Assembly: GCA_964455555.1 (NCBI GenBank) | Contig: CAYVXV010000003.1 | Location: forward strand, 1,475-65,474 | Length of the DNA: 64,000 nucleotides | Source of the DNA: an uncultured Pseudomonadales bacterium | GTDB taxonomy: Bacteria; Patescibacteriota; Microgenomatia; UBA1400; PJMF01 | Reading direction: 5' to 3' | Shown here: positions 3,346 through 50,675 of the stretch, piece after piece | How positions within the stretch are numbered: the first letter of the stretch is position 1 | How the letters are laid out: each line of letters begins with the position of its first letter | The notes under the pieces: generated by a model | Database searches by the model: none | Seen by the model: only the letters and a program-made list of their open reading frames with translations | Told to the model about the DNA's origin: nothing | Position numbers and translations under genes: made by a program

Positions 3346-4515
3346 CTACAAAACTTGCTTGTTAATCTGGCTTGGCCTGCCTACCACTGAATCCCCAGCC
3401 TTCTGGAGAAACCTTTGGTTTAAACGCCTAACCTTTAGCGCCAAACTTAGATCTGAGGCAGCTTTTGGCGGCTTGTAAAGAAACTGATCCATCACCCGAT
3501 CATATGCCTTTTCGTAACCCTCCGCCATATTTTTATAATTAAAGAGAAGCCTGGATCTCTCAGAAATATACCGTCGGTCCATTTCAAAACACTCCTGAAT
3601 GACGTGCGCGCCTTCAGCGTAGTCTTCTACCAGTTTACCTGTTCTTCCGTCCTCAATTAGTTCGGGCATAGACCCCCTAGAAATGGCTAGAGTCGGAGTG
3701 CCACAATAGGCAGACTCCAGTACAGTCAAACCAAAAGGCTCCCTAAAGCCTGTTGGGTGCAAGTTGCATTTAGCCCGGCTTATCAGTTCAACTTTTTGGC
3801 TCATCTCAATCTCGCCTAAATATTCGACTAAAGGATTGCTCAGATGAGGTTCTATCAATTCCTCCCAATAACCGTTGGCTAAATAATCGCGTTTGCCCGC
3901 CAATTTAATTTTCATACCGAGATGAAGTGCGAGTTCTATGGCCATATGCGGATTTTTTTCACGGTCAAACCTCCCAATAAAGCAGAGATAGTTGTCCGGC
4001 TCCATCACCACTGGAAATTCCGTTGGGTCCAACCCGTTATAAACAACTCCAACATAATTCAGGTCAGGAAAAGAACTTTGCTGGTTTTCTGATATCGAGA
4101 CATAATAGAGGCCCTTGCGTTTTTCAAAGTAGTCCATCTTTTCTAAAGTAAATTTTCCGTGAAGAGTCGTTAGATTGGGAAATTCCTGAAAGTCTATAAG
4201 GTCCATGCTGTGTGAATGAATAATGTCAATATCAGGTTGAATTTTCTTGAGGATTTCACTTACTTCCCTCTCTATTTTTAAGCCTTTTTTCTTAACCTCA
4301 TCGTGCTCGCGTTTGTTCATGCCAAAAAAAAGTTCTTTGTCGCTAATTGGAATCAGCCGCACGCCCGGCACATAGGAGTCTCCTGTAGCCAGTAAAGTTA
4401 CATCGTGGCCCCGTTCAATCAACCCCTTAATCTGATGGTAAATAACCCTTTCAGTGCCACCATATTTTTTTGGAGGCACCTTAACCCACGGTCCCGATAC
4501 AATTGCAATATGCAT
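3346..4515 (-). CDS. Glycosyltransferase family 4 (GT-B fold)
   Basis: N-terminus MHIAIVSGPWVKVPPKKYGGTERV, and C-terminal EPFGLTVLESAYCGTPTLAISRGSMPELIEDGRTG nucleotide-sugar binding motif typical of GT4. Start placed at the internal ATG (MHIAIV) at 4515; the ORF track begins 28 codons upstream. Confidence 0.8.
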   Translation of the reverse strand: MHIAIVSGPWVKVPPKKYGGTERVIYHQIKGLIERGHDVTLLATGDSYVPGVRLIPISDKELFFGMNKREHDEVKKKGLKIEREVSEILKKIQPDIDIIHSHSMDLIDFQEFPNLTTLHGKFTLEKMDYFEKRKGLYYVSISENQQSSFPDLNYVGVVYNGLDPTEFPVVMEPDNYLCFIGRFDREKNPHMAIELALHLGMKIKLAGKRDYLANGYWEELIEPHLSNPLVEYLGEIEMSQKVELISRAKCNLHPTGFREPFGLTVLESAYCGTPTLAISRGSMPELIEDGRTGKLVEDYAEGAHVIQECFEMDRRYISERSRLLFNYKNMAEGYEKAYDRVMDQFLYKPPKAASDLSLALKVRRLNQRFLQKAGDSVVGRPSQINKQVL

Positions 4516-4663
4516 ATCACGCCTTTCTAGGTTGCTGTTCGTCCGCATTTTAGGTTTAGCTTGTAAGTTCCAAGTTAGAGCCATGTAACAAGACAACAAT
4601 CAAGCCACTTTCATCTGTCATACCCTTTAATTTTTATTCCAGATTTGCTAAGGTACACAAGCA

Positions 4664-6463
4664 ATGAAGTACTTCATAAAGGGCAATTACTACTTCGATA
4701 TAGACTTGCAGAATCAACTCAGAATTACCGGTCCAGAAAATCACCTTCTTCTGGGTTTAGCTGTTCCCCCGGCATTTCCTATCACTATTGAAAATTACGA
4801 TGTTATTGATGAGCAGCTATCGATTGAATTATCAGTTCCAACTGATGAAATATACGTTCCACTGCCTCTGGTCACAGATATACGAACTCTTCGTCATGAA
4901 ATAGAACCAGTAATGCCCCACCCAACATACAAAGATCTGATTGATCAAAATGTAAAAAGCGTCATGCCCCGCAATAGAAAGCAGTCTTTGGTCGGGGGCT
5001 CAACAGTTATTTCTCTCTCCAATACTTATGTAGATGGCTCTGGCATCGAGAGATCGTATGGGGCCGAGCTAACATTCCCGCCTGGATATATAGTCAGAAT
5101 GACCGACGCCTCTCTGGCTGTAAAAAGCAATACAGACAAAATTCATTTTTTTGTGTATTCAATAACAGCAATTGAGTCTCAGCGAGACTTAGATACTCCG
5201 ATCTTCGCTGAGATAGAAGATCCTGATCCAAATTTGTTGTCGCCTGGAATTATCTCGCTTTTTGACGAATCAAGAATTCAAGTAGAACATCTGGTAAAAA
5301 ATAGGAAAACCAGTAGTTTTGAGTATGGAACAATCTTCCCCCGTGACTGGATTGAGTCTGCAGACCTGGGAACCGGTGATTTGTCTGTGGAAACAATCGA
5401 TTATATGTACCGCCAATCTATGAAATATGTATCCGAGTCAGGCGAGGGATGGCATGAGGAAGTAATCGGAGAATACCGGAGCCGGTTTATTGAACATGAC
5501 AAACTAGTTGATAGGAAAATGATCGATATCGAACCTCATTATATCCTTGGAGTACCCCGTGTTAGTAAACGCTTTCTTTTTGATGATGACAATCACGAAA
5601 AATTTAAACGGGTGGCTGCATTCGTGCTCAAAAAAGCAGATGAAAAAGAATTTATTACCTTTAAACAAATTGATCCGAACAAAGAGGATTTTTATCCCGT
5701 GGGAAACTGGCGCGATAGCGCCAACGCCTTTCCTGGCCAAAAAAGCCCCCTAGCCCCCTACGACGTCAACTGTGTGTTTTATCCCCAAGCTTTAAAAATA
5801 ATTCACAAATACCATGAGTATTTCGAAATCACCGACCTAGGAAAGCTGGAGAAACTCATAGAAAAATGGGACCACCACAAGATTAAATTCCGCCTTTATC
5901 ATCCTAATGATATTAGTGGCTACTCTCTTGCACTACATGGCAAAAAAAATATCCCAATGCCGACTGCGCATTTAGACGAGTCGTACGACCTGTTTTACAA
6001 CAGCTCAGATTTGGAATCGATAATGAGCTTTGCCAAAAAAATTATTGACCCCGACTTTTTTTACACTCCGGTTGGGCCGATTTTAGTAGCATCAGACGAA
6101 CCAGAATTCACTACAAAGCAATATCATGGGAAAGTCATCTGGCCAAAACAGGTTGGCTTTGCTGTGGCGGGCATGGCTAAGCAGTATCGAATCGGCCTTG
6201 CAGAGAGCTGGCCTGACCCAATCATGGAGGCTCTGGCAGAAGCCATCATCATGACCTGTGAAGCTAGTTTTAGAGGCTGGAAAGACCTTAACTCTGTGCC
6301 AGAGCTGTATTACTACGATTCTGAACAAGACAGAGCGAGACTATACACCGATCAAGAAGATTATGAAGGCCAGATGAGCTTGATCCAATTGTGGTCAGCT
6401 GTCAGCTGCAGGCTTATTGTCAGAGAATACCAATTTATAAAAAAAGAGCTTGAACATAAATAA
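4664..6463 (+). CDS. Hypothetical protein, 599 aa, no recognisable domain
   Basis: Long uninterrupted ORF with an ATG start, divergent from the GT4 gene. Motifs GWHEEV and NWRDSANAFPG are noted but not assignable. Confidence 0.6.
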   Translation: MKYFIKGNYYFDIDLQNQLRITGPENHLLLGLAVPPAFPITIENYDVIDEQLSIELSVPTDEIYVPLPLVTDIRTLRHEIEPVMPHPTYKDLIDQNVKSVMPRNRKQSLVGGSTVISLSNTYVDGSGIERSYGAELTFPPGYIVRMTDASLAVKSNTDKIHFFVYSITAIESQRDLDTPIFAEIEDPDPNLLSPGIISLFDESRIQVEHLVKNRKTSSFEYGTIFPRDWIESADLGTGDLSVETIDYMYRQSMKYVSESGEGWHEEVIGEYRSRFIEHDKLVDRKMIDIEPHYILGVPRVSKRFLFDDDNHEKFKRVAAFVLKKADEKEFITFKQIDPNKEDFYPVGNWRDSANAFPGQKSPLAPYDVNCVFYPQALKIIHKYHEYFEITDLGKLEKLIEKWDHHKIKFRLYHPNDISGYSLALHGKKNIPMPTAHLDESYDLFYNSSDLESIMSFAKKIIDPDFFYTPVGPILVASDEPEFTTKQYHGKVIWPKQVGFAVAGMAKQYRIGLAESWPDPIMEALAEAIIMTCEASFRGWKDLNSVPELYYYDSEQDRARLYTDQEDYEGQMSLIQLWSAVSCRLIVREYQFIKKELEHK

Positions 6464-8861: not shown

Positions 8862-9323
8862 ATGAAAAGAGCTAAATCAAGACTTAAGCAACCGGCATTT
8901 GAAAAACCGGCCGGTAAGCATTCCAACCCAAGTCAGCCAATATTTAAGGCTAAAGACAGCAGGCAGAAACCAACAGGCCTGGGTGCTTATTTGCGATATC
9001 TGCCAGTCTTAATTTTGAGCCTGCCGTTTTATGCTCTGGTATTCTGGATTGTTTCTACTCAGTATCCTGATCAAATTGCTGACACACTCTTTTCCAACTC
9101 CTACCTTTATTTTCAAATACCACTATTTATAGCTAATACTTTGCTATTCAGCTTTTTGCTTCTTGATACAACCAGAGGTGTTTTATTGAGCAGCCTTATT
9201 TCCATCTTGTTGTTTCTAAGGCTTCAGCTGGTGATTTTTGAACTTAGCTGGATTTTGCCCTTGCTTGGAATTTTTGTCTTATTGGATTTAATAACAAAAA
9301 AGCTAATTCGGCCATCTGCCTAG
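8862..9323 (+). CDS. Hypothetical membrane protein, 153 aa
   Basis: Basic N-terminus followed by three or four hydrophobic helices. No motif. Confidence 0.4.
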   Translation: MKRAKSRLKQPAFEKPAGKHSNPSQPIFKAKDSRQKPTGLGAYLRYLPVLILSLPFYALVFWIVSTQYPDQIADTLFSNSYLYFQIPLFIANTLLFSFLLLDTTRGVLLSSLISILLFLRLQLVIFELSWILPLLGIFVLLDLITKKLIRPSA

Positions 9324-9364
9324 GTGGCTCTTGAGAGCTTATCCTGTATAATCTGAAAGAAGTT

Positions 9365-10879
9365 ATGCACCAGAAATTTTTCTATATCACCACTACCCTG
9401 CCATATGTGAATGCAACACCACACATCGGGTTTGCCCAAGAAATAGTAGCCGCTGATGTTTTTGCCAGGTATCAGCGTACACTCGGTACAGAAGTTTTTT
9501 TTAACACTGGTACAGATGAGCACGGGCAGAAAATCTATCAAAAAGCATTGGAGCAAAACAGGGACCCACAATCTTATGTAAATGACTACGCCAAACATTT
9601 TAAAGACCTGCAAGGACTTCTAAACCTTAGTTTTAATAGTTTCATCCGGACAACCAACCCTAAACATGTTGCTGCAGCGCAGGAATTTTGGAGGCGCTGC
9701 GAGGCCAATGGAGACATTTATAAACGAATGTATACACTCACCTACTGTGTCGGCTGCGAATTGGAAAAACAGGCTTCAGAGCTGGAAAACGGCCGTTGTC
9801 CGCTGCATCCCAATCAAGAATTAGAGGTAAGAGAAGAAGAAAATTACTTCTTCAGGTTCTCAAGATATCAGCAGTCACTGTTGAATATTTATGAAAACGT
9901 AACTGATTTTGTTGTTCCTGAGAGCAAATTAAAGGAGATTACTGCTTTTGTAGCTGGAGGCCTTCAGGATTTCAGCATTTCCAGATTAAAAGAAAAAATG
10001 TCCTGGGGCATACCTGTTCCCGGTGACGAAGATCATGTCATGTATGTTTGGTTTGATGCTTTGGTCAATTATGTTTCTGCCTTAGGCTGGCCGGACAACG
10101 AAGCTCAGGTAGAGAAGTTTTGGCCAGGTGTTCAAGTTGCGGGAAAAGACAACCTCCGTCAGCAGTCAGCTATGTGGCAAGCCATGCTATTATCCGCTGG
10201 ACTCAAGGCTTCAGAAAAAATACTTATAAATGGTTTCATTTCTGTCGACGGCCAAAAAATGAGCAAGTCACTTGGAAATGTCATTTCCCCTGACGAAATG
10301 GTTGAGCGTTATGGTGTTGATGCTTCCCGTTATCTGTTAATGAACCTCAATCCTTTTGGTGAAGATATGGATGTGACATGGGAAAAACTTGATAATGCAT
10401 ATACAGCAGACCTCGCAAATGGACTGGGAAACCTTGTTTCACGCCTAGCCAAACTCGCTGAAAAAAACGGTTTAACCACAGCTGAGGCAATCCCCCAGGA
10501 TGAGGGTTCGAAAATGCAAGCGCTGCTTGATTCAACAGATTTAAAAAGAGTAACAGATCAATACACTCAAGCTATGACTGATTTCAATCCGGGTCTTGCC
10601 CTTAAATCAGTATTTTTAGATGTTGTTGACTCGGAAACTGTAAAATCTACAATGCACATGAGTGTTTCAACTCTGGATAAGTATTTAGCAGTAGAGCAGC
10701 CTTGGAAATTGTCTGCAGAGGTAGCTGAACCCATTCTAAACAAAGCCATTGCTGACCTCATGCAGATAGCAACTAAACTAACCCCCTTTATGCCTGATAC
10801 AGCAGCCTACATTATTGAGCACTTTTCCGAAAGCAAGCTTAGAGCAGCAGACCCCTTGTTTCCACGGTTGGAAAAATAA
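9365..10879 (+). CDS. metG: Methionine--tRNA ligase (short form)
   Basis: Class I aaRS HIGH motif (PHIGFAQE) and KMSKS motif (KMSKSLGN). The CXXC knuckle (CVGCELE...GRCPLH) is typical of MetRS. Confidence 0.9.
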   Translation: MHQKFFYITTTLPYVNATPHIGFAQEIVAADVFARYQRTLGTEVFFNTGTDEHGQKIYQKALEQNRDPQSYVNDYAKHFKDLQGLLNLSFNSFIRTTNPKHVAAAQEFWRRCEANGDIYKRMYTLTYCVGCELEKQASELENGRCPLHPNQELEVREEENYFFRFSRYQQSLLNIYENVTDFVVPESKLKEITAFVAGGLQDFSISRLKEKMSWGIPVPGDEDHVMYVWFDALVNYVSALGWPDNEAQVEKFWPGVQVAGKDNLRQQSAMWQAMLLSAGLKASEKILINGFISVDGQKMSKSLGNVISPDEMVERYGVDASRYLLMNLNPFGEDMDVTWEKLDNAYTADLANGLGNLVSRLAKLAEKNGLTTAEAIPQDEGSKMQALLDSTDLKRVTDQYTQAMTDFNPGLALKSVFLDVVDSETVKSTMHMSVSTLDKYLAVEQPWKLSAEVAEPILNKAIADLMQIATKLTPFMPDTAAYIIEHFSESKLRAADPLFPRLEK

Positions 10880-10896
10880 GTGCGATTTTTATAATC

Positions 10897-11805
10897 ATGC
10901 AAATAATAGATACTCATTGCCATTATAATCTTGAGCCATTGTACTCAGGACGCAGTAATGATGAAGAAGCCAATCAAGCTGATTCAGATAACCTAACCTG
11001 GCAGCAACATTGGTCAAAAGCGCAAGAGCATGGTGTTGTCGGATCCATAGTTGTTGGCACTTCCTTCCAGACTTCAATTAGAGCTGCATCAATAGCAAAC
11101 CAGGCGTCAAATCTTTTCGCCACTATCGGCATTCATCCGAGTGAGGCTTATGGCAGGCTAATGGAAAAACAAGGCTTAGCCCTTGAGAGTTTTAAAGAGG
11201 AGTTGGAAGAATTGGAAGGCATAATAACAGAAAAGACAGTTGCGGTCGGTGAAATCGGTTTAGATTATTTCTGGCTTGAAGATACTCCCCACAAAAAAAG
11301 CGCCATTCTGCTGCAGCAAGAGCTTTTTAAACTCCAACTCATGCTGGCAGAAAAACATCACCTGCCGGTTTGCATACATGTCCGCGACCGGCAACAGCCG
11401 GAAACAAAAACTGAAGGCAATGCCTACTGGGATACGTTAGCCATTCTCGAAGCTAATTCCATGCACGAAACACCCTTTATTCTTCACTGCGTTTCCGGTC
11501 CGAAGCCATATATTGAGGCTGCAATTGGTTTAGGAGGCTATATTGGGGTAGCCGGTAATGCGACTTATCCGAATGCTCAGGCTCTTAGAGAGATAATTAC
11601 GGCTGCCAGCAAAGACAAAGTCTTGCTGGAAACTGACGCCCCCTATTTGCCCCCGCAGCAGTTCCGGGGTACAATCTGCGAACCCTGGATGATAAGAGAG
11701 ACAGGAAAATTTGTTCAAGAACAACTCAGTCTCAGTAATGAACAGATTCTTGAAAATACAAAAAATTTATTTAGGCAGTTTAACAACCAAAGTGATTTGG
11801 TATAG
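10897..11805 (+). CDS. TatD-family metal-dependent hydrolase/DNase
   Basis: N-terminal IDTHCH metal-binding motif and C-terminal LETDAPYLPP motif characteristic of TatD. Confidence 0.85.
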   Translation: MQIIDTHCHYNLEPLYSGRSNDEEANQADSDNLTWQQHWSKAQEHGVVGSIVVGTSFQTSIRAASIANQASNLFATIGIHPSEAYGRLMEKQGLALESFKEELEELEGIITEKTVAVGEIGLDYFWLEDTPHKKSAILLQQELFKLQLMLAEKHHLPVCIHVRDRQQPETKTEGNAYWDTLAILEANSMHETPFILHCVSGPKPYIEAAIGLGGYIGVAGNATYPNAQALREIITAASKDKVLLETDAPYLPPQQFRGTICEPWMIRETGKFVQEQLSLSNEQILENTKNLFRQFNNQSDLV

Positions 11806-11819
11806 TTAAAGAGGTCAAT

Positions 11820-13325
11820 ATGGGCAATTGGTTGCGGCATTACATCAAGCGTCATCCTATCAGGACTCAGCGGTTTTTAGAAATACTGCCGGGGTTTGTC
11901 TCTTGGTCCTTAATTTTATTCCCGCTTTGGGGGTCACTCATTTTTCCAACACTAGTTGCCTACTATGTTATTGCTTTTGCGGTTTATTGGCTGTTTAGAT
12001 CTTTGACAATGTCCTTCCTGGCTGTAATTGCTCACTTTAAAATTAAAGCTGCTTCAAAATTCGATTGGGTCGCTGACTTGAAAGCCACTTTTCCAAAGAG
12101 ATGGAACGAAATTCATCATATTATCGTTATACCCACTTACCAGGAACCTGTAGAAATTCTTGAGCGAACGATTGACGCATTGGCAAAACAAAGTTATTTG
12201 CTCTCCAACCTGCACATCATGGTTTCTTTTGAAGAAAGAGAGGGCAAACCCGCACAAGAAAAGGCGCAGCGTCTGGAAAAAAAATATAGCAAAACTTTTG
12301 GTAATATATGGACTACATTCCATCCGGATATCGAAGGTGAGGTTAAGGGAAAATCCTCCAACACCTGCTGGGGAGCAAAAATTGCCAAGAAAAAACTAGT
12401 TGATGAAGCAGGGCTTCCTATCGGTGACATCACAATATCCAGCGAAGATGCAGATGCCCAATTTCACCAGCACTACTTCTCTGCTGTAACCTATAGCTTT
12501 TTAGAAACAGACAGACCCTACAATGCAATCTGGCAAGGTGCCATAGTCTTCTACAATAACATCTGGCGCGTCCCTCCAGCTATAAGGGTGCTGGCTTCAA
12601 TGTATTCGGTTATCCAAATGCACATTCTTCTTAGGTCGGACAGACTTATTAATTTTTCTACGTATACGACGTCGCTCAAGCATGTTCACGACATCGGCTA
12701 CTGGGATACCGATGTTATTCCAGAGGACTATCGCCTTTTCTTTAAATCCTATTTTGCAAAAAAAGGAGATTTTGAAGTTAAACCCGTCTTCCTTCCTGTC
12801 TATTCTGATGCTGCTGAATCAACTTCAGTATTCGGCTCCTACAAAAATCAGTATGAACAGCTCAAGCGCTGGGCTTGGGGGGTTAGCGACGATTCATACA
12901 TTATCAAAAAATACATTGAGGCAAAGGATGTGCCTTTTTGGGATAAGACAGTCCGGGTTGCCTCAACAATAGAGGACCATTTCCTCTGGCCTGTCAACTG
13001 GTTTGCCATAACAATCTCGGCATTTCTGCCGCCGCTTTTAAACGAAAGTTTTAACCGTACTGTACTGGGTAAAACTCTACCCCAGGTGACTTCATCACTG
13101 CTAACGATAGCACTTGTTTCCATGGTCGTGATATTTATTATTGATGCGGTCAACCGCCCGCCGCGGCCAAACCGCAAAAACCCCCTGTCTTATATTTTTC
13201 AACCGCTCGAATTCTTGCTGTTGCCGATTGTCGGCTTCTTCTTTTCTGCTCTACCAGGTATAGATGCTCACACCCGGCTAATGCTTGGAAAATACATTGA
13301 ATATAAGGTGACTGAAAAAGTATAA
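11820..13325 (+). CDS. Membrane-embedded processive glycosyltransferase family 2 (cellulose/chitin-synthase-like)
   Basis: Two N-terminal TM helices; GT-A-like core IIVIPTYQEP with an acidic SSEDADAQ motif. A QxxRW motif (EQLKRWAWG) is characteristic of processive GT2 synthases. Three C-terminal TM helices. Confidence 0.6.
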   Translation: MGNWLRHYIKRHPIRTQRFLEILPGFVSWSLILFPLWGSLIFPTLVAYYVIAFAVYWLFRSLTMSFLAVIAHFKIKAASKFDWVADLKATFPKRWNEIHHIIVIPTYQEPVEILERTIDALAKQSYLLSNLHIMVSFEEREGKPAQEKAQRLEKKYSKTFGNIWTTFHPDIEGEVKGKSSNTCWGAKIAKKKLVDEAGLPIGDITISSEDADAQFHQHYFSAVTYSFLETDRPYNAIWQGAIVFYNNIWRVPPAIRVLASMYSVIQMHILLRSDRLINFSTYTTSLKHVHDIGYWDTDVIPEDYRLFFKSYFAKKGDFEVKPVFLPVYSDAAESTSVFGSYKNQYEQLKRWAWGVSDDSYIIKKYIEAKDVPFWDKTVRVASTIEDHFLWPVNWFAITISAFLPPLLNESFNRTVLGKTLPQVTSSLLTIALVSMVVIFIIDAVNRPPRPNRKNPLSYIFQPLEFLLLPIVGFFFSALPGIDAHTRLMLGKYIEYKVTEKV

Positions 13326-13356
13326 GCATTGCCTCCAACATTAGATATTGTCATTT

Positions 13357-14991
13357 ATGAGTAAAGCTCGCTATACTGGAGAGGTGTCTGTTAAAACGCT
13401 TGGTTTCTATAAAGTTATCGATCGAAAAGTAAAGCGCTCTATGCCCCTAGTGCTTTTGCTGCTCTTAGTCCTCCTGCTAAGACTTCCAAATTTTGCTGAA
13501 CCATATTGGTATGGTGACGAAGGCATTTATCTAACTATCGGCCAGGCACTCAATAAAGGCTATGGCCTTTATTCAGAAATAATTGACCACAAAACACCGC
13601 TGATTTATGTTTTGGCACAGGTAGGTACACAGACAAACTTCCGTCTTTTACTTGTGCTATGGATGTTGGCTACTACCAAGTTCTTTTACTTCTTCGCTCT
13701 TAAATTATTTGAAAACAAACAAGCACCGGCTATCATTTCCACCATCCTCTTCATTCTCTTAACCACTTTGCCGTGGTTTGAAGGGAATATCCCAAATGGA
13801 GAGCTTTTTGTCCTTGGGTTTGTGCTGCTTGGCGCCATTCTGCTAACAAAAACAGCTTATTTCTCCTCGTTGCTCAATACTAAAAAGGAAACAAAATTCA
13901 GCAAGAAAGAATCGGTTTTCCTCTTAGCTGCTGGGGCCTCGCTTGGCTTGGGAATTTTAACCAAGGTTCCGGCACTTTTTGACGCAGGTGCCCTAATGAC
14001 CGCCGGCTTCTTTGCAGTAACAAATAAATTTACCTTTATTCCCAGAAAAACTGAGTGGGTAAAGGCCTTGCAAAACACTTTACTGCGCTGGGGTTTGTTA
14101 ACTGCAGGCATAGCTTTGCCAATCATTGCCTCGGTGCTATATTTTACAGCCAAAGGAACGGCCGCAGACTACCTGCAATTCGGCCTGCTTTACAATTTCC
14201 ACTATGCCGGCTCATGGGGACTGCCATTCGAGAGCAAGTTACTACAAATGTTATTTACATTACCTGGAAAATTCGCTCTGACGGCCGGCATCATTTTATT
14301 ATTAACCTTCTTAAGAAAACATGTCCGTCCTATATATCAATTTTTAGGCGCATGGTTTGTCCTAGCCCTTTTTGCCAGCCTTTTGTCTAATCGCCCCTAT
14401 CCACACTATTTCATCCAAGTTATCCCTCCTCTCGTTCTGCTAACCGGCCAAGCAGCAGCTGACTTCATGTCCATCAAGGGTAAACTTCCCCAGGCCCTCA
14501 TGAGAACAAAACATCTGCAGACTCTTCTGATTCCCCTGGGCGCAATAGGTCTTTTCTCTGCTGTTTTGATTTTGTTGAATGTAGGGCTTTATCCTGTTAA
14601 AAGTTATTACAGCAACTGGTGGCAATTCTTTAGCGGTGCTATTAGCCGGGAAGAACACCGCCAGAGTTTTAACTACCTCATGAAGGACAATTACTCTGCT
14701 GCAGCCATTATCAAAACAGCTGGCTCTGATAGATTGTTTATCTGGGGAACCAACCCAATGCTTTATGCTCTGTCGGGTGCCACCCCAACCGGGCGCTTCA
14801 CGGTTTCCTTCCACATCAAGGATCTAGATGCCTTCGACGAAACATTTGAGGACTTTGTTGCGGTTTCACCGGAGTTTGTAGTGGTCATGAACAATGAGAA
14901 AGACCCATTTCCTAACTTCTACACTTATTTGCACAATAACTACAGGCCATATAAAAATCTAGACAACTTTATTCTTTGGCGCAGAATCTAA
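13357..14991 (+). CDS. GT-C fold glycosyltransferase (ArnT/PMT-like), polytopic membrane protein
   Basis: At least 10 predicted TM helices; first loop PYWYGDEGIYLTIGQAL resembles the DE-containing first periplasmic loop of ArnT/GT39/GT83 enzymes. The ORF track starts at a TTG (13348); alternative ATGs at 13357 and 13441. Confidence 0.55.
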   Translation: MSKARYTGEVSVKTLGFYKVIDRKVKRSMPLVLLLLLVLLLRLPNFAEPYWYGDEGIYLTIGQALNKGYGLYSEIIDHKTPLIYVLAQVGTQTNFRLLLVLWMLATTKFFYFFALKLFENKQAPAIISTILFILLTTLPWFEGNIPNGELFVLGFVLLGAILLTKTAYFSSLLNTKKETKFSKKESVFLLAAGASLGLGILTKVPALFDAGALMTAGFFAVTNKFTFIPRKTEWVKALQNTLLRWGLLTAGIALPIIASVLYFTAKGTAADYLQFGLLYNFHYAGSWGLPFESKLLQMLFTLPGKFALTAGIILLLTFLRKHVRPIYQFLGAWFVLALFASLLSNRPYPHYFIQVIPPLVLLTGQAAADFMSIKGKLPQALMRTKHLQTLLIPLGAIGLFSAVLILLNVGLYPVKSYYSNWWQFFSGAISREEHRQSFNYLMKDNYSAAAIIKTAGSDRLFIWGTNPMLYALSGATPTGRFTVSFHIKDLDAFDETFEDFVAVSPEFVVVMNNEKDPFPNFYTYLHNNYRPYKNLDNFILWRRI

Positions 14992-15013
14992 GGAGCGCTG
15001 CTATAATGCGCAT

Positions 15014-15382
15014 ATGAGATTAAGCCGAGCCAACTTCCCCTCATTTCGATTGTATATTCCACCGGCTGTCCAACAGCCCTTTAAGGCGGCGGCGGCTATC
15101 GGTATCGCCACCCTGCTCTTAGCTGGACTCTATTATCCCGGGTCACAGCCGCAACTACCCATCTTTTACTCAATGGCACAACAATCACAACAATTGGCTC
15201 CCAAAGAGTTAATCTTTCTTTTTCCGGGAATTTCATTTGTCATCTTGGCTGCACACCTCGCCATCATTCATGCTCTTAAAAACATAGATAAACTCGTGCT
15301 CAGGTTATTTGCTCTAATGACAGCTATTCTGCAATTTGTCCTATTATTATCACTGATAAGAATAATCTACATTACTTGGTAG
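15014..15382 (+). CDS. Hypothetical small membrane protein (3 TM)
   Basis: Hydrophobic ORF inside the glycosylation operon. No motif. Confidence 0.3.
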   Translation: MRLSRANFPSFRLYIPPAVQQPFKAAAAIGIATLLLAGLYYPGSQPQLPIFYSMAQQSQQLAPKELIFLFPGISFVILAAHLAIIHALKNIDKLVLRLFALMTAILQFVLLLSLIRIIYITW

Positions 15383-15394
15383 TTGGCGGAGTTT

Positions 15395-16468
15395 ATGTTT
15401 GTATTTCTACTAACCTGCGCAATAGCAGCGTTAATCACACCATTGATCATAAAGTGGTATCGCTCAAATAATTGGCTCGACACCCACAACAGCAAGCGCC
15501 CGGTAAAAAATACCCACAGTAAGGCTGTTCCCCGTGGGGGCGGGCTAGTGATTATGACCAGCGTCCTGCTTGCCAGCCTAATATTCTTGCAGGTTGATAA
15601 ATACTTAATTGCCATCCTAGCCGGCGGAGTTATCTTGACAGTGGTTGGATTTCTCGATGACCTTTTTGATTTGCATCCTCTCATCAGGTTGGTAGCTGGA
15701 GTCTTTGTTTCCTTGATAGTAGTAGGATCCGGCATAGGTATTGCATACGTCAGCAATCCTTTTGGCGAAGGTGTAATTCATCTAAATAATCCTCAGCTCA
15801 GTTTGAGCTTATTTGGAAATTTGCACACAATCTGGATAGTGGCAGATTTTTTTGCAATGCTATTTATTCTGTGGAACATGAATATTGTCAACTGGTCAAA
15901 GGGAGTGGACGGCCAAATGCCGGGTTTTGTCAGTATTGCTGCTATTATTATCGGCATCCTTTCCTTCAGATTTATAGATGACCCAACTCAATTTAATACT
16001 GCTCAACTCAGTTTTATCGTTTCCGGTGCTTTTGCTGGATTTTTAATTTGGAATTGGTATCCTCAAAAAATAATGCCCGGTTACGGCGGGGGTACTTTGG
16101 CCGGCTACTTTTTAAGTATTCTAGCCATTTTATCAGGCGCAAAAGTTGCCACCGCCCTGATGGTCTTAGGAGTACCCACTGCCGATGCTATTTTTACTAT
16201 TCTAAGAAGGATTAGGGCGGGCAAATCACCTTTCTGGGGCGACCGCGGGCACATGCATCACAAGCTGCTGGACGTGCTTAAGTGGGGAAGGCGGAGAATT
16301 GCTATTTTTTATTGGCTGTCCAGCCTTGTCCTTGGATTGTTGTCGCTATATTTGAATACTACTGGCAAGTTGATTACAATAATGTTAGTAATACTGTTAG
16401 TATTCACTTTTTTAATATGGGCAAAATGGAAATCTCTTCACCATAATGTAAAGGGGATAACTGCCTAA
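15395..16468 (+). CDS. Polyprenyl-phosphate N-acetylhexosamine-1-phosphate transferase (WecA/MraY family)
   Basis: Motifs SKAVPRGGG, DDLFDL (DDxxD) and NIVNWSKGVDG (NxxNxxDGxDG) are diagnostic of the MraY/WecA phosphoglycosyltransferase family; the PRGGG context favours WecA-like. The ORF track start is TTG at 15383; ATG at 15395 is used here. Confidence 0.8.
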   Translation: MFVFLLTCAIAALITPLIIKWYRSNNWLDTHNSKRPVKNTHSKAVPRGGGLVIMTSVLLASLIFLQVDKYLIAILAGGVILTVVGFLDDLFDLHPLIRLVAGVFVSLIVVGSGIGIAYVSNPFGEGVIHLNNPQLSLSLFGNLHTIWIVADFFAMLFILWNMNIVNWSKGVDGQMPGFVSIAAIIIGILSFRFIDDPTQFNTAQLSFIVSGAFAGFLIWNWYPQKIMPGYGGGTLAGYFLSILAILSGAKVATALMVLGVPTADAIFTILRRIRAGKSPFWGDRGHMHHKLLDVLKWGRRRIAIFYWLSSLVLGLLSLYLNTTGKLITIMLVILLVFTFLIWAKWKSLHHNVKGITA

Positions 16469-16474
16469 AACACC

Positions 16475-17440
16475 ATGCCCGAAACAACCCACCTCATCTA
16501 CCTTATCCTAAAAACAGCCCGGCCCAGACAATGGATTAAAAACTTAGCCTTATACGCAGCTTTAATTTTCTCCGGTTTCTTTTTCTATAATCCAGCGGAC
16601 GGTCTGCCTTATGCGCTTCAGGTTACTATAGCTTTTGTTCTATTTTCTGCCCTTACTGCCAGCATTTATATCATTAACGATTTAGTTGACTACGAAGCCG
16701 ACAAACAGCATCCGTTTAAAAGAAAACGGCCAATAGCTTCTGATGAGCTACCTAAAAACCTTGCAATCGTTGTGGCGCTTTCAGGCCTAACATTCGTTTT
16801 TGTAGCTTCGTTTTGGTTTCCAATTTTCTTTAGGGTCTTGCTGCTAGGATACTTGGTATTGCAGATTCTCTACTCCAAAAAGTTAAAGCATGTGCCAATT
16901 CTAGATGTTAGTTCGATTGCGACTGGATTTTTAATCAGAATTTATGCCGGTGCAGTGGTGGTAAATCTGCACATGAGCGTATGGTTTTTGCTGACTGTAA
17001 TTTCGGCTTCGCTGTTTTTGGCTGTGGGAAAACGTCAGAGCGAACGAACCCTTATGAGGGAATCAAAAGATCAGGATCTGGGTACTACCCGCAAAATCCT
17101 TAAAAGATACAGCCAGCGATTGCTTGATCAATATACTGCCATGTTTGCCAACGCTACCTGGCTGACATATGCCCTCTTTGCTTTTCAAAATGAGATTACC
17201 AAGCCGGATGACCGCTACGCCTTCATCTATACTTATCTGCCGACTGCGCTTCAATCACAAAAACTACTGATGCTGTCATTGCCTTTTGTTATTCTAGGAG
17301 TGATGAGGTACCTTCAGATTATCTATGAGAGCAATAAGGGAGAGTCTCCAGAGAGAGTTTTAATTCAGGACAAACCACTATTAATTACAGCCTTTTTATT
17401 CGCACTAGTAGTGATGTTGGTCACTTATGTGCTTTCTTAA
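16475..17440 (+). CDS. UbiA-family prenyltransferase, decaprenyl-phosphate phosphoribosyltransferase-like
   Basis: Motif YIINDLVDYEADKQHPFKRKRPIASDELP closely matches the NDxxDxxxD plus KRxRP signature of the DPPR-synthase branch of the UbiA superfamily. 8-9 TM helices. Confidence 0.7.
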   Translation: MPETTHLIYLILKTARPRQWIKNLALYAALIFSGFFFYNPADGLPYALQVTIAFVLFSALTASIYIINDLVDYEADKQHPFKRKRPIASDELPKNLAIVVALSGLTFVFVASFWFPIFFRVLLLGYLVLQILYSKKLKHVPILDVSSIATGFLIRIYAGAVVVNLHMSVWFLLTVISASLFLAVGKRQSERTLMRESKDQDLGTTRKILKRYSQRLLDQYTAMFANATWLTYALFAFQNEITKPDDRYAFIYTYLPTALQSQKLLMLSLPFVILGVMRYLQIIYESNKGESPERVLIQDKPLLITAFLFALVVMLVTYVLS

Positions 17441-17452
17441 GGCAGGTCTTTC

Positions 17453-18814
17453 ATGCACAGCTTCATAGAGCGTTACTACCCCACATTGCTCATATGCGTT
17501 CTAGCCTTTAGTTTTTTTACCCGCGTCTACCGCCTCAACCAGCCTGAGGGCTATATGTTCGATGAGGTTTACCACGCGGTCACCGCCAAGCTTATTGCCA
17601 AAGATGATCCCAGGGCATATGAGTGGTGGAACCCAGATCCTGAACCAAATACAGCTGTAGACTGGTTGCACCCTCCCCTCGCTAAATATACTCAAGCTTT
17701 TTTCATCTTGGCATTCGGAGAAAATGCCCTAGGCTGGAGATTTAGTTCAGCAGTTTTTGGCGTATTAACAATTTGGATGACTGCACTACTGGCTTATGAA
17801 CTCTTTTCCAAGCACTCTCTAAGCTTGCTGGCAGCCATTATTGCTGCACTTGATGGCTTATTGTTAGTTCAATCGCGCATTGCCATGAATGATATTCACG
17901 TAACATTTTTTATACTCCTGGCTTTTCTTTTTTACCTCAAACATCTGAAGCACTTTCATTTATTTGCCAAGAAAAAGCATAGTTTCCGCTATCTGGCATT
18001 AACAGGCATATCGGCTGGCATAGCAATATCATCCAAATGGTCCGGAGCATTTGCTCTCGGTGCCATAGTTTTTACCGAGGGAGTTATGTTTTTCGCTTCT
18101 TTAATCCGTTCCAGGGCTATGCTGAGGAGATCTGCCGGGCAGCTATCAAAGAAAGCCTTAGCCATATTTGCTGCTTTAGCTCTGGTACCAGCAGCAATCT
18201 ACTTCCTCTCCTACAGCCAGATGTTTATTCAGGGCAAAGATCTGGCTCATTTCAGAGGACTACACTACCAAACTTGGTATTATCAAACTCATCTCGAGGC
18301 AACACATGCCTATCAATCCCGTCCGATACAATGGTTTTTAAACCTTAGGCCTGTTTGGTTCGCAGTTGATTTTTCTACACTGGGGAAGCGGGCGGACATT
18401 TATGCGTTCGGCAATCCGGTCCTTTTTTGGTTAGGAGCATTCAGCATCGTTGGCTCCACGGCTTATTTAGGGGTGCTTATATTTAAGAGGAACTTAGAGA
18501 AGTTATTAAAGAGCAAATTTTTGGTTTTGCTGCTACTTTTCTATTTTGTCGTTTGGATCTTTTGGCAATTCTCACCAAGAATTATGTTCTTCTATCACTA
18601 CACGCCTGCTGTTCCATTAATGAGCATCAATCTGGCCTACTGGCTGCTGAAAATTAAAGAATACTCTAAATCCAGAATCGGCCGGCTGACACCTGCCATT
18701 GCTGTATCAATCATGGCGGTGGCATTTATTATTTGGTATCCCCATTGGACATTTTTAAGTGTCCCCACTTCTTTTGCAGACAATATTTACTTTGCTCTGA
18801 AAAGCTGGAGATAA
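17453..18814 (+). CDS. GT39/PMT-family GT-C glycosyltransferase (polyprenyl-P-sugar dependent)
   Basis: N-terminal loop YMFDEVYHAVTAKLIAKDD matches the PMT DE motif (DEVHF-like). Multiple TM helices throughout. Confidence 0.7.
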   Translation: MHSFIERYYPTLLICVLAFSFFTRVYRLNQPEGYMFDEVYHAVTAKLIAKDDPRAYEWWNPDPEPNTAVDWLHPPLAKYTQAFFILAFGENALGWRFSSAVFGVLTIWMTALLAYELFSKHSLSLLAAIIAALDGLLLVQSRIAMNDIHVTFFILLAFLFYLKHLKHFHLFAKKKHSFRYLALTGISAGIAISSKWSGAFALGAIVFTEGVMFFASLIRSRAMLRRSAGQLSKKALAIFAALALVPAAIYFLSYSQMFIQGKDLAHFRGLHYQTWYYQTHLEATHAYQSRPIQWFLNLRPVWFAVDFSTLGKRADIYAFGNPVLFWLGAFSIVGSTAYLGVLIFKRNLEKLLKSKFLVLLLLFYFVVWIFWQFSPRIMFFYHYTPAVPLMSINLAYWLLKIKEYSKSRIGRLTPAIAVSIMAVAFIIWYPHWTFLSVPTSFADNIYFALKSWR

Positions 18815-36915: not shown

Positions 36916-37485
36916 ACTATAAAACTGTGAATTATAAAGGCTGCTTATTTCTAAGCAGCCTTTTTGATGCAAGATGCATAAACCTAATGACAATACCACA
37001 ACTTATTAGTAAATATTACCGCTTCCTACTTGATCAAATTTATTATCCTATAACATTGATTTTTGAGGTTATAAATGATATAATATTTTATAGTAATAAT
37101 TTATTTTATGCCTATAAATCCAACCAAGTCCACGCAACCCTTTTCTTGTCAGATGTTTGATTATTGGCCCAGATAATTAAACATCTGCTAAGAACGCGCT
37201 TTTTTCGCCCAATCAGCATTTACGCTGAAACCGGCGCTGAAAGCACTCCTAGCAGTTGGCAGGCTTGATTGCACTTTGGTGCGAAAAAGCCGGCTCTTTA
37301 ACAGCAAGGCAATAAAATATATAGCTCAAAAGATAAACTCCTGTTCTTCCTGAGCCATTGTTGATGTGGCAGCTACCTTGCACATAAGTTTTTGTGTGCA
37401 GCGCTGCTGTCATGTCGGCAGCCAATTCTTTCCCTGGCGCAAGCATTGGGGAAGAGTTGTCACTTTTGGTTTAGGGAGGAAATTA

Positions 37486-37808
37486 TGTCGCTAGAGGCCA
37501 TGTGGCGAGAATTTCTCGCCACTCCCATCCTGGTCTTCTTGGCTGGGATGCTGACGTGTTGGCTGCTCAATGCGCTAGTTTTGCCGGATAACCGGTCGAG
37601 CTGGCTGCATGCGCGGCGCAATGTTCCCACAGTGCTGCTGCCTCTCGGGGTTGTAGCCTTGGTCATTGCTGCCGCTGCCATTATCCTGGGCTTAGCCCAG
37701 GCAATGGTTTACATTCGCATTAACCCTGCGGTCTGGCTCTTGCTAGCAGCTGGGTTAATTATCCTGATCTTGTGGTTCGCCACAAGAAGGAGACGACCGC
37801 ATGCCTAA
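37486..37808 (+). CDS. Hypothetical small membrane protein (GC-rich island gene 1)
   Basis: GGGAGG RBS 6 nt upstream of the ATG. Two or three TM helices, RRRRPHA tail. Overlaps the start of the next gene by 8 nt (operon). GC about 60%. Confidence 0.5.
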
Positions 37809-39174
37809 GTACATCTTTGTTCTGGCAGCGCTCATCGCGCTGCTCGTCGCTGGGTGTGGCGAGCTCGTGACCGTAACTGGTCCCGAGACGTCCACCCCGG
37901 CACCGGCGGCCCCGTTAGCGCCGTCTCAGGAAGAGGCCGCTCCCGCGGTCGAAGAGCCCTCGCAAGAGAGCTCGCCGCCCCTCCGCGACAACCCCGCACC
38001 CGCGGGGAATGCGGAAGAAGCTGAAACCAAAGCAGAGGTTGTACCTGCAACCAATGCTGAGGATTCCTCGACCGCCACTCCTGTGGTGGTTGAGGCAGCT
38101 AGCGTCGCTCTCAACGACAACCCGGGCCACCGAGTAATTGTCCGTTGGAGCGACATTGATGCTGTGCTGGCGGAGACGGAGGAAGCCTCCGATGTCTTTG
38201 CGGCACTTGTCGAGGAATTCTGGCCATTTATGGTCTCGCTCAGCCCTGAGCAGATCGAAAATGGCTTAATTCTCGAGGGAGAGGGACTGCTCTTCATCGA
38301 ACTGTATTACCTCGGGCAAGAACTGCCCGAAGGTGTGCAGTGGCTTTGTGACTCCTGCCATGAATTTGGCTGGGGCCTCATCGCCATCGATGAGGGGGTC
38401 GAGTACCAGATCCCCTGGGATGAGGATGCGCCAATCGCAGGCGCGTGGTACCTCCCCATTGGCCTGGCGCTTGAACGCGTCCAGGACACATGGCTGGTAA
38501 CCACCTATGATCAGCGGGCCCTACCGCTGGTCAGCGAAGACGCCGTCCGCAGTGAACTCGGTACGCTGGCAAACACCGAGCAAGCCATCAGCCACATGAA
38601 CAACAGTTACTGGCAGTCCGCCCTCGGGTGGACTGCTAGTGATGCCGACAGCGGTTACACCGTAGTCGGCCCAGCGTTCGTGTGGACGGCCTGGCACGGA
38701 AGCCAGCCCAGCGGAGTTGTTTCCGCCTGCGCTAACTGCGTACGGCAGGACTGGGGCGTCTTCTACGTCCCAGACGGTGTCTCCTTCGAGACGCCGGACA
38801 ACAACAGCGGTGGCCGTTGGCTTCCACTGTGGGGGTCGAGCTGTCAGGGTGCTTCGCGCATCCAGCAGTTCATCTCCAGTGCCGAAACGCCGCAGGATGC
38901 CGTCGGTCGGATGCACGGGGATCTCTGGTCCCCGGTGGAAGACTATGACGGCTACAACCGCACCGAAAACTTCGTCTTTGGCGGGGTCCTAGACCTCGCT
39001 GCTGATGAAGTGGCCGTCATCTGGACCGACTGGAAGGGCGCTCCCCCCGAGGGAGCTATGCCCGCCACCAGTTCGTCCTACGACTTTGGCTACGGTGTCT
39101 TCACCGCAGCCGGGCCGTGGGAATACCGGTTCAGTGACGGAGGCGGTGGCGCCTTCGTCTTCAGCTGCGACTAA
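37801..39174 (+). CDS. Lipoprotein with Pro/Ala/Glu-rich linker and novel C-terminal repeat domain (GC-rich island gene 2)
   Basis: Lipobox LVAGC; about 80 aa PAE-rich low-complexity linker. The C-terminal about 95 aa (AETPQDAVG...TDWKG...GYGVF...GPWEY) is homologous to both repeats of the 40508 protein. Very high GC3. Confidence 0.65.
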   Translation: MPKYIFVLAALIALLVAGCGELVTVTGPETSTPAPAAPLAPSQEEAAPAVEEPSQESSPPLRDNPAPAGNAEEAETKAEVVPATNAEDSSTATPVVVEAASVALNDNPGHRVIVRWSDIDAVLAETEEASDVFAALVEEFWPFMVSLSPEQIENGLILEGEGLLFIELYYLGQELPEGVQWLCDSCHEFGWGLIAIDEGVEYQIPWDEDAPIAGAWYLPIGLALERVQDTWLVTTYDQRALPLVSEDAVRSELGTLANTEQAISHMNNSYWQSALGWTASDADSGYTVVGPAFVWTAWHGSQPSGVVSACANCVRQDWGVFYVPDGVSFETPDNNSGGRWLPLWGSSCQGASRIQQFISSAETPQDAVGRMHGDLWSPVEDYDGYNRTENFVFGGVLDLAADEVAVIWTDWKGAPPEGAMPATSSSYDFGYGVFTAAGPWEYRFSDGGGGAFVFSCD

Positions 39175-39344: not shown

Positions 39345-40277
39345 ATGAAGAAAAACAACAAACAACCACTGGTTTCGGTGCTTATCCCCGTTTATAACGG
39401 TGCTGAGTACCTGGATGAAGCCATTGCTTCAGTCCTCAATAGTACCTACAAAAACTTTGAGATTATTCTGGTGGATGACGGCAGCACAGATATTAGCCGA
39501 AAAAAATGCGCCGAATATGCCAAAAATCACGAAAACACCCGCTTCTATGCTTTCCGCAAAAATAAAGGCATGACCCGCTGCCTTAACTATGGCGTTAAGA
39601 AGGCTAAAGGCAAGTATATCGCCCGCATTAATCAGGACGACATCATGGTTAAAGACCGCCTGGAAAAACAAGTCGCCTTCCTAGAGAAAAATACCGGCTA
39701 TGTGGTGGTTGGAGGTGCTATTCAGCTCTTTACCGATAACAACCCCAAATTTGACCGCATTCAATTCCCCCTAACCGATAAGCTGATCCGTTCACAGTGG
39801 ATGATCTTCAGCCCCTACTCTGATCCGACCGTTATGTTCAGAAAAAGCGCTTGGGACAAAACTGAAGGCTATAGCCAATACTTCTGGCCTGCAGATGATG
39901 TCCATATGTGGTATCAGCTCGGCAACATCGGCAAAATGGCCAATTTACCAGGCATCCTGACCAAAGTGCGCTGGCATGATTCCTGCGGTTCAATTAAAAG
40001 CCACCGCCTGCAGATGCAAAAAACCTGGCGGGTTCATAATTGGGCAGCTGAAATGGTTCAAAAACCCAAGTTGTATGAGCGATTGTTCTGGATCGGCGAA
40101 CTGTTGGCCGGCTACCTGTTCACGCCTCAATTTAACTGGCTGGTCTACAGAACTATGCGCAAATTCCAAGCGGCTTTGTATTTGTCCCGCACCCAGTCAA
40201 AAAAGGTGCATTCTTCGCTTAGAACCCAGTTCTTACTCTTCAAAAAACAGTTTTCGCTGCTGCTTTTAGGTGCTTAA
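39345..40277 (+). CDS. Glycosyltransferase family 2
   Basis: VSVLIPVYNGAEYL...ILVDDGSTD GT-A N-terminal signature and an acidic motif further in. Composition close to the host average. Confidence 0.8.
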   Translation: MKKNNKQPLVSVLIPVYNGAEYLDEAIASVLNSTYKNFEIILVDDGSTDISRKKCAEYAKNHENTRFYAFRKNKGMTRCLNYGVKKAKGKYIARINQDDIMVKDRLEKQVAFLEKNTGYVVVGGAIQLFTDNNPKFDRIQFPLTDKLIRSQWMIFSPYSDPTVMFRKSAWDKTEGYSQYFWPADDVHMWYQLGNIGKMANLPGILTKVRWHDSCGSIKSHRLQMQKTWRVHNWAAEMVQKPKLYERLFWIGELLAGYLFTPQFNWLVYRTMRKFQAALYLSRTQSKKVHSSLRTQFLLFKKQFSLLLLGA

Positions 40278-45911: not shown

Positions 45912-46002
45912 CGAACGCACATGCCAATTATACGTTAATTTTTCTCAAGTAAGCAAGTTAGAGGCTGATTAAATGCAAGAAAGATGAATTATCATCACGG
46001 CC

Positions 46003-48794: not shown

Positions 48795-48800
48795 TAGTGT

Positions 48801-49601: not shown

Positions 49602-49637
49602 CAATTTATTTCGAAGAAAGTGAGTTACAATAATTTC

Positions 49638-50663: not shown

Positions 50664-50675
50664 CCCTACTGACCA

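Follow-up and report, generated by a model that had tools for sequence, protein, structure and literature searches.

A run of five genes in a 64,000-nucleotide (nt) stretch of Patescibacterial DNA may encode a conserved envelope-glycan pathway of Microgenomates-type Patescibacteria, in which a pentofuranose would be placed on a polymer made by a membrane synthase. The stretch, referred to here as the window, comprises positions 1,475 to 65,474 of contig CAYVXV010000003.1 (assembly GCA_964455555.1). We rate the odds that the whole model is right as roughly even (about 0.5). The five genes encode, in order, a synthase-type family 2 glycosyltransferase (GT2L), an ArnT-like glycosyltransferase of the GT-C type (GTC1), a small membrane protein of 122 amino acids (aa) (sm122), a polyprenyl-phosphate sugar-1-phosphate transferase (PNPT) of the MraY/WecA superfamily (GT4), and a UbiA-family protein that is very probably a polyprenyl-phosphate 5-phosphoribosyltransferase. 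The gene for a second, PMT/GT39-like GT-C enzyme follows in the window and appears to be accessory.

The UbiA-family protein resembles DPPR synthases

Among NCBIfam models the UbiA protein scored 217.4 bits against NF008978, the model for decaprenyl-phosphate phosphoribosyltransferase (cut-off, 207), and 199.7 bits (NF008977; cut-off, 234) and 155.3 bits against two sister models. The best model of any other UbiA subfamily reached 42.7 bits. The sole matches in a sequence search of the PDB were two structures of mycobacterial Rv3806c, 8j8j (3.7e-36) and 8j8k, with nothing else at an E value of 0.01; the UbiA protein is 34% identical to Rv3806c. The structural study of Rv3806c named the ligands of Mg and of the ribose, 5'-phosphate, and pyrophosphate of phosphoribosyl pyrophosphate (PRPP), and reported that ordinary UbiA enzymes do not share its phosphoribose site (PMC10994848). 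In a MAFFT alignment of Rv3806c residues 12-241 with 81 Patescibacterial sequences, these ligand positions (R22, K28, Y70, N73, D77, K87, R90, Q135, Y138, K143, and Y157) match R16, K22, Y65, N68, D72, K82, R85, Q130, Y133, K138, and F152 of the window protein, and, with two exceptions, they are kept in the window protein and in 81 of 81 sequences. Gln135 (Q130 in the window protein) is His in six sequences, and Tyr157 is replaced by Phe in all of the Patescibacterial sequences, as it is in some mycobacteria (PMC10994848).

Thus, the expectation in an earlier note on this DNA that the protein would group with decaprenyl-phosphoribose (DPPR) synthases, and not with MenA/UbiA, was borne out by the profile scores, the PDB match, and the retained PRPP ligands; the NDLVDYEAD...KRKRP motif that had led to it is present. 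The sequence evidence makes it very probable that the protein is a PRPP-dependent polyprenyl-phosphate phosphoribosyltransferase. The NCBI pipeline already calls some of these proteins "decaprenyl-phosphate phosphoribosyltransferase" (and some of the GT2s "glycosyltransferase family 2 protein"). The JGI name is often "4-hydroxybenzoate polyprenyltransferase," and one study took the ubiA of a Saccharimonas genome to indicate ubiquinone synthesis (PMC11484240). The assignment proposed here would correct this recurring misannotation.

Partner functions were sought by scanning individually the six cluster proteins and 30 other open reading frames (ORFs) of the window, and by a batch scan of 51 ORFs evaluated for the 25 most frequent of 57 families; about 17 ORFs, mostly the size of ribosomal proteins, were covered only by those 25 families, and the scans did not take in seven short ORFs past 61.2 kb or a few others of <100 aa. 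Neither the scanned window ORFs nor the recurrent neighbor families examined yielded a domain of the DprE1 (FAD_binding_4/ALO) or DprE2 (short-chain dehydrogenase) type. Therefore, the analogy that the earlier note had drawn with the decaprenyl-phosphate-arabinose (DPA) pathway is not supported as far as arabinose is concerned, and ribofuranose becomes the default sugar. A polyprenyl-P-mannose synthase was likewise not found in the same ORFs and families.

The synthase and the GT-C enzymes

Because sequence and profile searches of GT2L and GTC1 against PDB sequences returned nothing useful, structure prediction was needed for both proteins. The D, DxD, ED, and QxxRW motifs of GT2L lie in a GT-A domain with transmembrane helices on either side. 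All 55 orthologues share HHIIxIPTYxEP, EDAD (208-212), PEDY (301-304), and QLKRW (347-351) without variation, so the QxxRW and Asp motifs survive realignment, and the mean column identity of these orthologues is unusually high (76%). The window protein gave no Pfam match at 0.01 and 20 bits to PgaC, and many of its orthologues carry a precomputed PF13632 match. The AlphaFold2 model of GT2L (pLDDT, 77.7; pTM, 0.79) was matched by Foldseek over its full length to the hyaluronan synthases of a Chlorella virus and of Xenopus and to BcsA (E values of 2e-9 to 1e-6; TM score, ∼0.5), at 10-16% identity to the solved synthases. Judged by its motifs and modeled fold, GT2L is a membrane-integrated, processive GT2 of the synthase type.

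The loop-1 motif of GTC1, PYWYGDEGIY, follows the first helix and is invariant in 66 orthologues; the Pfam PMT match of the protein is weak (0.0027). Its AlphaFold2 model (pLDDT, 93; pTM, 0.91) was matched best by ArnT (5f15; 7e-7; TM score, 0.53), followed by AglB/STT3, AftA, and Pmt4. GTC1 has at its C terminus an alpha/beta domain of some 130 aa, which by analogy with ArnT is presumed to be extracytoplasmic. On the basis of the modeled fold and the loop-1 Asp-Glu motif, GTC1 is a GT-C enzyme whose nearest known counterpart, at the level of fold, is ArnT.

The second GT-C enzyme was recognized from its Pfam domains, PF02366 (9.6e-21) and PF16192 (PMT_4TMC; 2e-16), and both GT-C assignments in the earlier note therefore hold. 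Its FDE motif (36-38), of the loop-1 Asp-Glu type, is invariant in 42 orthologues, and its PDB match was yeast Pmt1 (3e-7). With 91 bits against a cut-off of 800, the protein falls below the bacterial (actinobacterial) Pmt equivalog NF058602, and no polyprenyl-P-mannose synthase that could serve as its partner was found among the window ORFs scanned. The only other GT2 in the window was considered as a polyprenyl-P-hexose synthase for the PMT-like protein and rejected, as it resembles the soluble Leloir enzymes EpsE/TuaG and not Ppm1/GtrB. The earlier note had pointed out this GT-C enzyme as the neighbor of UbiA. It was discarded as the primary partner, since its gene is absent from about half of the genomes, and it is the upstream, ArnT-like GTC1 that tracks UbiA instead.

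GT4 and sm122

GT4 belongs to the family of PF00953 (4.4e-23; 82.5 bits; cut-off, 27), and its PDB match was MraY (5jnq; 3.8e-10). DD (92-93) and GDRGHxHH (286-293) are invariant in 74 orthologues. The description of GT4 as WecA-like stands at the level of the MraY/WecA superfamily but not beyond it, because the protein is far below the equivalog cut-offs for both WecA (TIGR02380; 74 bits; cut-off, 326) and MraY (TIGR00445; 47 bits; cut-off, 192).

The small protein sm122 has about three hydrophobic segments, as read from an alignment of 59 orthologues in which P49, P71, and R116 are invariant and a QPxIPLFYSL loop is conserved. Neither sm122 nor its 58 orthologues gave a GtrA, SMR, or MATE match, and a weak DUF1648 match was seen in 9 of the 59. 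A profile of sm122 matched nothing in the PDB. A phmmer search of 1.8 billion proteins matched 167 representative clusters, nearly all of the same size as sm122. A GtrA-type flippase resembling Rv3789 was rejected as an identity for sm122 on these grounds, i.e., the lack of a GtrA, SMR, or MATE match and of a PDB profile match, and relatives that are nearly all of its own size. By size and position alone, sm122 is a candidate for a flippase or an accessory subunit. Among its database relatives, a 783-aa protein (P0446) matches residues 47-106 of sm122 in nine separate stretches and has weak Pfam matches (FAM210A/B-like).

Co-conservation of the five genes

The UbiA protein was scanned against one genome per species, which yielded 80 loci with UbiA proteins of 56-77% identity. 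Gene order was counted by tBLASTn and ORF clustering, with a gene scored when it lay on the same strand upstream of UbiA in loci with enough sequence. GT4 was found in 70 of 71 such loci (46-78% identity to the window protein), GTC1 in 60 of 63 (31-61%), sm122 in 56 of 69 (28-54%), and GT2L in 51 of 57 (65-86%). The gene for methionyl-tRNA synthetase (MetRS) was upstream of UbiA in 46 of 52 loci at 38-67% identity, and GT2L is thus better conserved than MetRS in the same genomes. The gene for the PMT-like protein was downstream of UbiA in 39 of 67 loci only. GT4 and UbiA overlap or abut (median gap, -4 nt), and the median gaps between successive core genes range from -4 to 32 nt. The order GT2L, GTC1, sm122, GT4, UbiA recurs in about 80 species-level genomes, and the co-conservation in relatives on which the earlier note had made its operon depend is therefore present.

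Loci in which the surrounding synteny is broken were the most informative. In five of them (L061, L068, L070, L081, and L082) the flanks are entirely different, and GTC1-sm122-GT4-UbiA is kept. L074 retains GT2L-GTC1-GT4 without MetRS and TatD, and only GT4-UbiA is kept in L030 and L034. Because of what persists in these loci, linkage is graded: GT4-UbiA is the tightest, followed by GTC1 and sm122, then GT2L, and then the PMT gene, and the housekeeping genes are lost first. TatD was considered as the missing phosphatase of the pathway and rejected, because loci that keep the core module in one piece have lost it. Pairs of MetRS and TatD genes are common among bacteria.

Several of these loci carry additional genes. 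Adjoining the core module in L061, L068, L070, L081, and L082 (∼8.9-16.9 kb, minus strand) is a second, classical lipid-linked-sugar system, which consists of a PMT_2-type GT-C and a GT2 that carries a GtrA/DPMS transmembrane domain by fusion; the same stretch encodes a UDP-glucose dehydrogenase and two enzymes like GDP-mannose dehydratase. UbiA is followed on the same strand by a gene for a 548-aa protein without a Pfam match in L030 (5789-7435) and at the same place in L034, and by a gene for a DUF2298 membrane protein in L057. Most of 14 loci that lack the PMT gene (e.g., L042, 8949-9833) have, 3' of UbiA on the same strand, a gene for a GalU-like UTP-glucose-1-phosphate uridylyltransferase, which scored 210 bits against TIGR01099, below the cut-off of 327; no homologue of it was found in the window. 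The identity of MetRS to the window protein is bimodal (∼38-43% versus 52-67%) among otherwise syntenic loci, and two MetRS types could have been swapped in place.

The names of homologues include Candidatus Pacebacteria, Woesebacteria, Microgenomates, and "Patescibacteria group," and Pacebacteria are now filed by NCBI under the phylum Minisyncoccota. The window accordingly derives from a Microgenomates-type patescibacterium. Many of the records that bear the locus are titled "uncultured Pseudomonadales," "Vitreimonas sp.," or "Limisphaerales"; given the content of the locus, these titles are probably taxonomic mislabels.

Gene arrangement and transcription

All six ORFs are on the plus strand where the earlier note had placed them, and its motifs (including QLKRW in GT2L) were recovered (Table 1). 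The gaps between them, in order, are 22 or 31, 22, 0, 6, and 12 nt, close to the 3 to 25 nt claimed but not identical. The first value depends on the start of GTC1: a database protein (P0241) that is identical over 99% of the ORF has 544 aa, consistent with the likely ATG within the ORF. However, the tight same-strand run consists of nine genes rather than six. Upstream of GT2L it includes the genes for a 153-aa membrane protein, MetRS, and TatD (gaps, 41, 17, and 14 nt), which are part of the gene run but probably outside the pathway. The gene for a UvrD/PD-(D/E)xK helicase is convergent and lies 5 nt past the last stop of the run, and guanine-plus-cytosine (GC) content is even over all nine genes (0.39-0.44).

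Table 1. Coordinates of features in the window
Feature	Position	Strand	Description
GT2L	11820..13325	+	501 aa; membrane-integrated processive GT2, synthase type (by ORF, motifs, and predicted fold)
GTC1	13348..14991	+	547 aa; ArnT-like GT-C; likely start ATG 13357
sm122	15014..15382	+	122 aa; small membrane protein, lineage-restricted
GT4	15383..16468	+	361 aa; polyprenyl-phosphate sugar-1-phosphate transferase, MraY/WecA superfamily (PNPT)
UbiA	16475..17440	+	321 aa; probable UbiA-family polyprenyl-phosphate 5-phosphoribosyltransferase (DPPR/polyprenyl-phosphoribose [PPPR] synthase type)
PMT-like	17453..18814	+	453 aa; PMT/GT39-like GT-C, accessory
Upstream genes	8862..11805	+	153-aa membrane protein (8862), MetRS (9365), TatD (10897)
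TATAAT-like box, MetRS	9347-9352	+	6-12 nt before start
TATAAT-like box, GT2L	11801-11806	+	TATAGT
TATAAT-like box, sm122	15002-15007	+	TATAAT; 6 nt before start
GT-B glycosyltransferase	3346-4599	-	PF00534
599-aa protein	4664-6463	+	no Pfam match
GC-rich patch	37392-39174		GC content of patches, 0.53-0.63
Leloir-type GT2	39345-40277		
GC-rich patch	40508-41266		GC content of patches, 0.53-0.63
1,414-aa ORF	41673-45920	-	no Pfam match
Lamin-tail-domain protein	46003-47139		
VanZ-like protein	47096-47485		
ABC-2-type transporter gene run	47994-52266		

A scan of the window for consensus promoters and terminators gave nothing above shuffled controls. In order to survey -10-like boxes across loci, the 30 nt before start codons were scored for their match to TATAAT. 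A match at five or more of the six positions was found in front of MetRS in 94% of loci (perfect in 65%), in front of GT2L in 60% (perfect in 9%), and in front of sm122 in 52% of 58 orthologous junctions (perfect in 36%, mostly 6-7 nt from the ATG), compared with 36% (perfect in 5%) for other ORF starts and 11% (perfect in 0.6%) for random 30-mers. The window itself has such boxes in front of the same three genes, and that of sm122 is a candidate internal promoter or leaderless start. Internal starts before GT2L and sm122 are plausible, and many transcripts in these genomes may have a short leader or none. Of the proposal that the genes form one operon, co-conservation and tight spacing are thus borne out; a single transcript is not established, as -10-like boxes lie inside the run. 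The unit of transcription may extend past the six genes and may also be split within them.

Proposed pathway and alternatives

From the family assignments, active-site residues, folds, and linkage described above we infer, as with the operon structure, a mechanism, a donor, and an acceptor. At the cytoplasmic face, the UbiA enzyme would transfer ribose-5-phosphate from PRPP to polyprenyl phosphate. A separate phosphatase would remove the 5'-phosphate, with polyprenyl-P-ribofuranose as the default product; another pentofuranose could take its place if an epimerase is encoded elsewhere in the genome. The donor would then be flipped across the membrane, possibly by sm122, and used on the outside by the ArnT-like GTC1. 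The most likely, and most economical, acceptor would be a polysaccharide that is primed by GT4 as a polyprenyl-PP-sugar and polymerized and exported by GT2L. Such a synthase-dependent route would need no Wzx/Wzy or ABC exporter, which would fit a genome of about 1 Mb. Some lineages would have the PMT-like GT-C in addition, and it would probably glycosylate either proteins or this same polymer. The use by GT-C enzymes of donors made by PPPR synthases for decoration after polymerization has been shown experimentally in Citrobacter, and a related arabinan pathway operates in mycobacteria (PMC11127046), where the combination of a PPPR synthase with an extracytoplasmic GT-C rests also on the study of Rv3806c (PMC10994848).

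It is tempting, if somewhat doubtful, to go further and regard a self-exporting pentofuranose polysaccharide of the cell wall or surface, built by a PNPT primer, a GT2 polymerase-exporter, a PRPP-derived pentose, and an ArnT-like GT-C, as a core and probably essential component of the envelope in this lineage. It would then be the first envelope glycopolymer pathway to be defined in the Candidate Phyla Radiation (CPR), and an independent use of the chemistry of mycobacterial arabinan outside the Actinobacteria.

Several observations weigh against the proposed pathway. Neither the ORFs scanned in the window nor the recurrent neighbor families examined gave a match to a PAP2 or HAD phosphatase, and no recognizable flippase (MATE, GtrA, or SMR) was found in the cluster proteins or the window ORFs scanned. 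GTC1 has no CAZy family placement, and its donor and acceptor are guesses. GT2L, for its part, could use a lipid as acceptor or produce an exopolysaccharide that is unrelated. The conserved -10-like boxes before GT2L and sm122 suggest that the genes are perhaps not one transcript. Furthermore, most loci are also syntenic for the unrelated genes RmuC, MetRS, TatD, UvrD, and DUF2130; because these neighbors are equally syntenic, much of the conserved order reflects shared ancestry, and order alone is weak evidence. Functional coupling is supported only by the loci, a dozen of them, in which synteny breaks down.

The alternative that survives best, although we consider it unlikely, is protein O-glycosylation, in which the GT-C enzymes would put a pentofuranose and/or a hexose on pilins, S-layer proteins, or lipoproteins in the manner of TfpW. 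A PMT/GT39-like enzyme does adjoin UbiA, and one product of the window is predicted to be a lipoprotein, with a linker rich in Pro, Ala, Ser, and Thr. A precedent is the addition of arabinofuranose to Pseudomonas pilin by TfpW, as cited in PMC11127046, and PMC11623550 describes type IV pili as prominent in the group. However, about half of the genomes have the module but not the PMT gene, pilin genes are not linked to the module, and the co-conserved GT2 synthase and PNPT point instead to a polymer on a lipid carrier.

It is less probable still that the genes are adjacent without sharing a pathway, i.e., that an exopolysaccharide or glycolipid synthase, a lipid-carrier primer, and a pentose donor act independently and are held together by the synteny of streamlined genomes. 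The equal synteny of the five unrelated genes in most loci and the possible separate promoters before GT2L and sm122 would agree with this, but in loci with disrupted synteny a core of four or five genes is still kept as a unit, unlike the housekeeping genes. All members are, moreover, membrane enzymes of lipid-carrier glycan synthesis, and GT4 and UbiA overlap or abut in 70 of 71 loci.

Least probable of all is a true arabinan of the Corynebacterineae type, with lipid-linked ribose epimerized by DprE1/DprE2-like enzymes encoded elsewhere and GT-Cs building arabinan on a linker primed by WecA. The two have their entry enzyme in common, with its PRPP site intact, a PNPT primer enzyme lies beside UbiA, and AftA is among the structural matches of GTC1, yet the window ORFs scanned and the recurrent neighbor families examined gave no match of the DprE1/DprE2 type, and ArnT matched GTC1 better than AftA did.

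Other features of the window

Two patches with elevated GC content stand out in a background of 0.43 (Table 1) and flank the Leloir-type GT2. They encode a 457-aa product with a lipoprotein-type LVAGC signal and a linker rich in Pro, Ala, Ser, Thr, and Glu, and a 252-aa product; the two share an AETPQDAVG segment, and neither matches Pfam or NCBIfam. These products may be horizontally acquired surface proteins and candidate targets of O-glycosylation. About 5 kb upstream of the module, the GT-B glycosyltransferase gene is divergent to that of the 599-aa protein. The 1,414-aa ORF, the genes for the Lamin-tail-domain and VanZ-like proteins, and the ABC-2-type transporter gene run lie beyond the GC-rich patches.

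Comparison with known systems

A full-text literature search found no paper on this module in Patescibacteria. The envelope composition of the CPR is essentially unknown and the organisms are hard to culture, and the module gives a concrete, testable prediction, namely, a PRPP-derived pentofuranose on a synthase-made polymer, with five genes named. It also provides, for structural and mechanistic studies, membrane glycosyltransferases that are very well conserved, among them a GT-C modeled at pLDDT 93.

Two of its enzymes recall other pathways. ArnT, which with ArnE and ArnF delivers aminoarabinose from undecaprenyl-P-aminoarabinose to lipid A, is the best match of GTC1, at the level of fold only. 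In the arn operon, genes for the small membrane proteins ArnE and ArnF follow that for ArnT, and the position of sm122 after GTC1 is similar; however, sm122 lacks an SMR/EamA signature, and lipid A is absent from these monoderm-like bacteria. As in the pathways of BcsA and hyaluronan synthase, one membrane GT2, in which the D, DxD, ED, and QxxRW motifs are combined with a transmembrane domain, is predicted both to polymerize and to export, but identity to the solved synthases is only 10-16% and the module contains no PilZ, BcsB, or other known partner. The WbbF system of Salmonella O:54 is a precedent for a pathway that is WecA-primed and synthase-dependent.

The second-nearest kind of system is the mycobacterial DPA/arabinogalactan pathway, which has a homologous entry enzyme (34% identity), a PNPT primer, and GT-C enzymes that use a lipid-linked donor. 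In contrast to that pathway, no homologue of DprE1/DprE2, of the Rv3807c-type phosphatase, or of GtrA-type Rv3789 was detected in the ORFs scanned; there is no GT-C of the size of the Emb proteins, and a processive GT2 stands in place of the GlfT-type galactan enzymes.

Nearest are the three-component pentofuranose systems, of which Citrobacter youngae O1/O2 is the prototype (Kelly et al. 2024; PMC11127046). Like them, the module combines a UbiA-type phosphoribosyltransferase with a GT-C, and the acceptor glycan is presumably made by other enzymes. The GT-C of the prototype belongs to GT136. That of the module is unclassified and is most like ArnT by fold, and among the ORFs scanned the module has no fused HAD phosphatase, MATE flippase, or epimerase. 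It is fixed instead to a hyaluronan/cellulose-synthase-like GT2, a PNPT, and a lineage-specific 122-aa protein. If the proposed pathway is right, the three-component pentofuranose idea would extend to a new architecture and a new phylum, in which the module appears to belong to the conserved core of a lineage rather than to be a serotype-variable decoration of O antigen.

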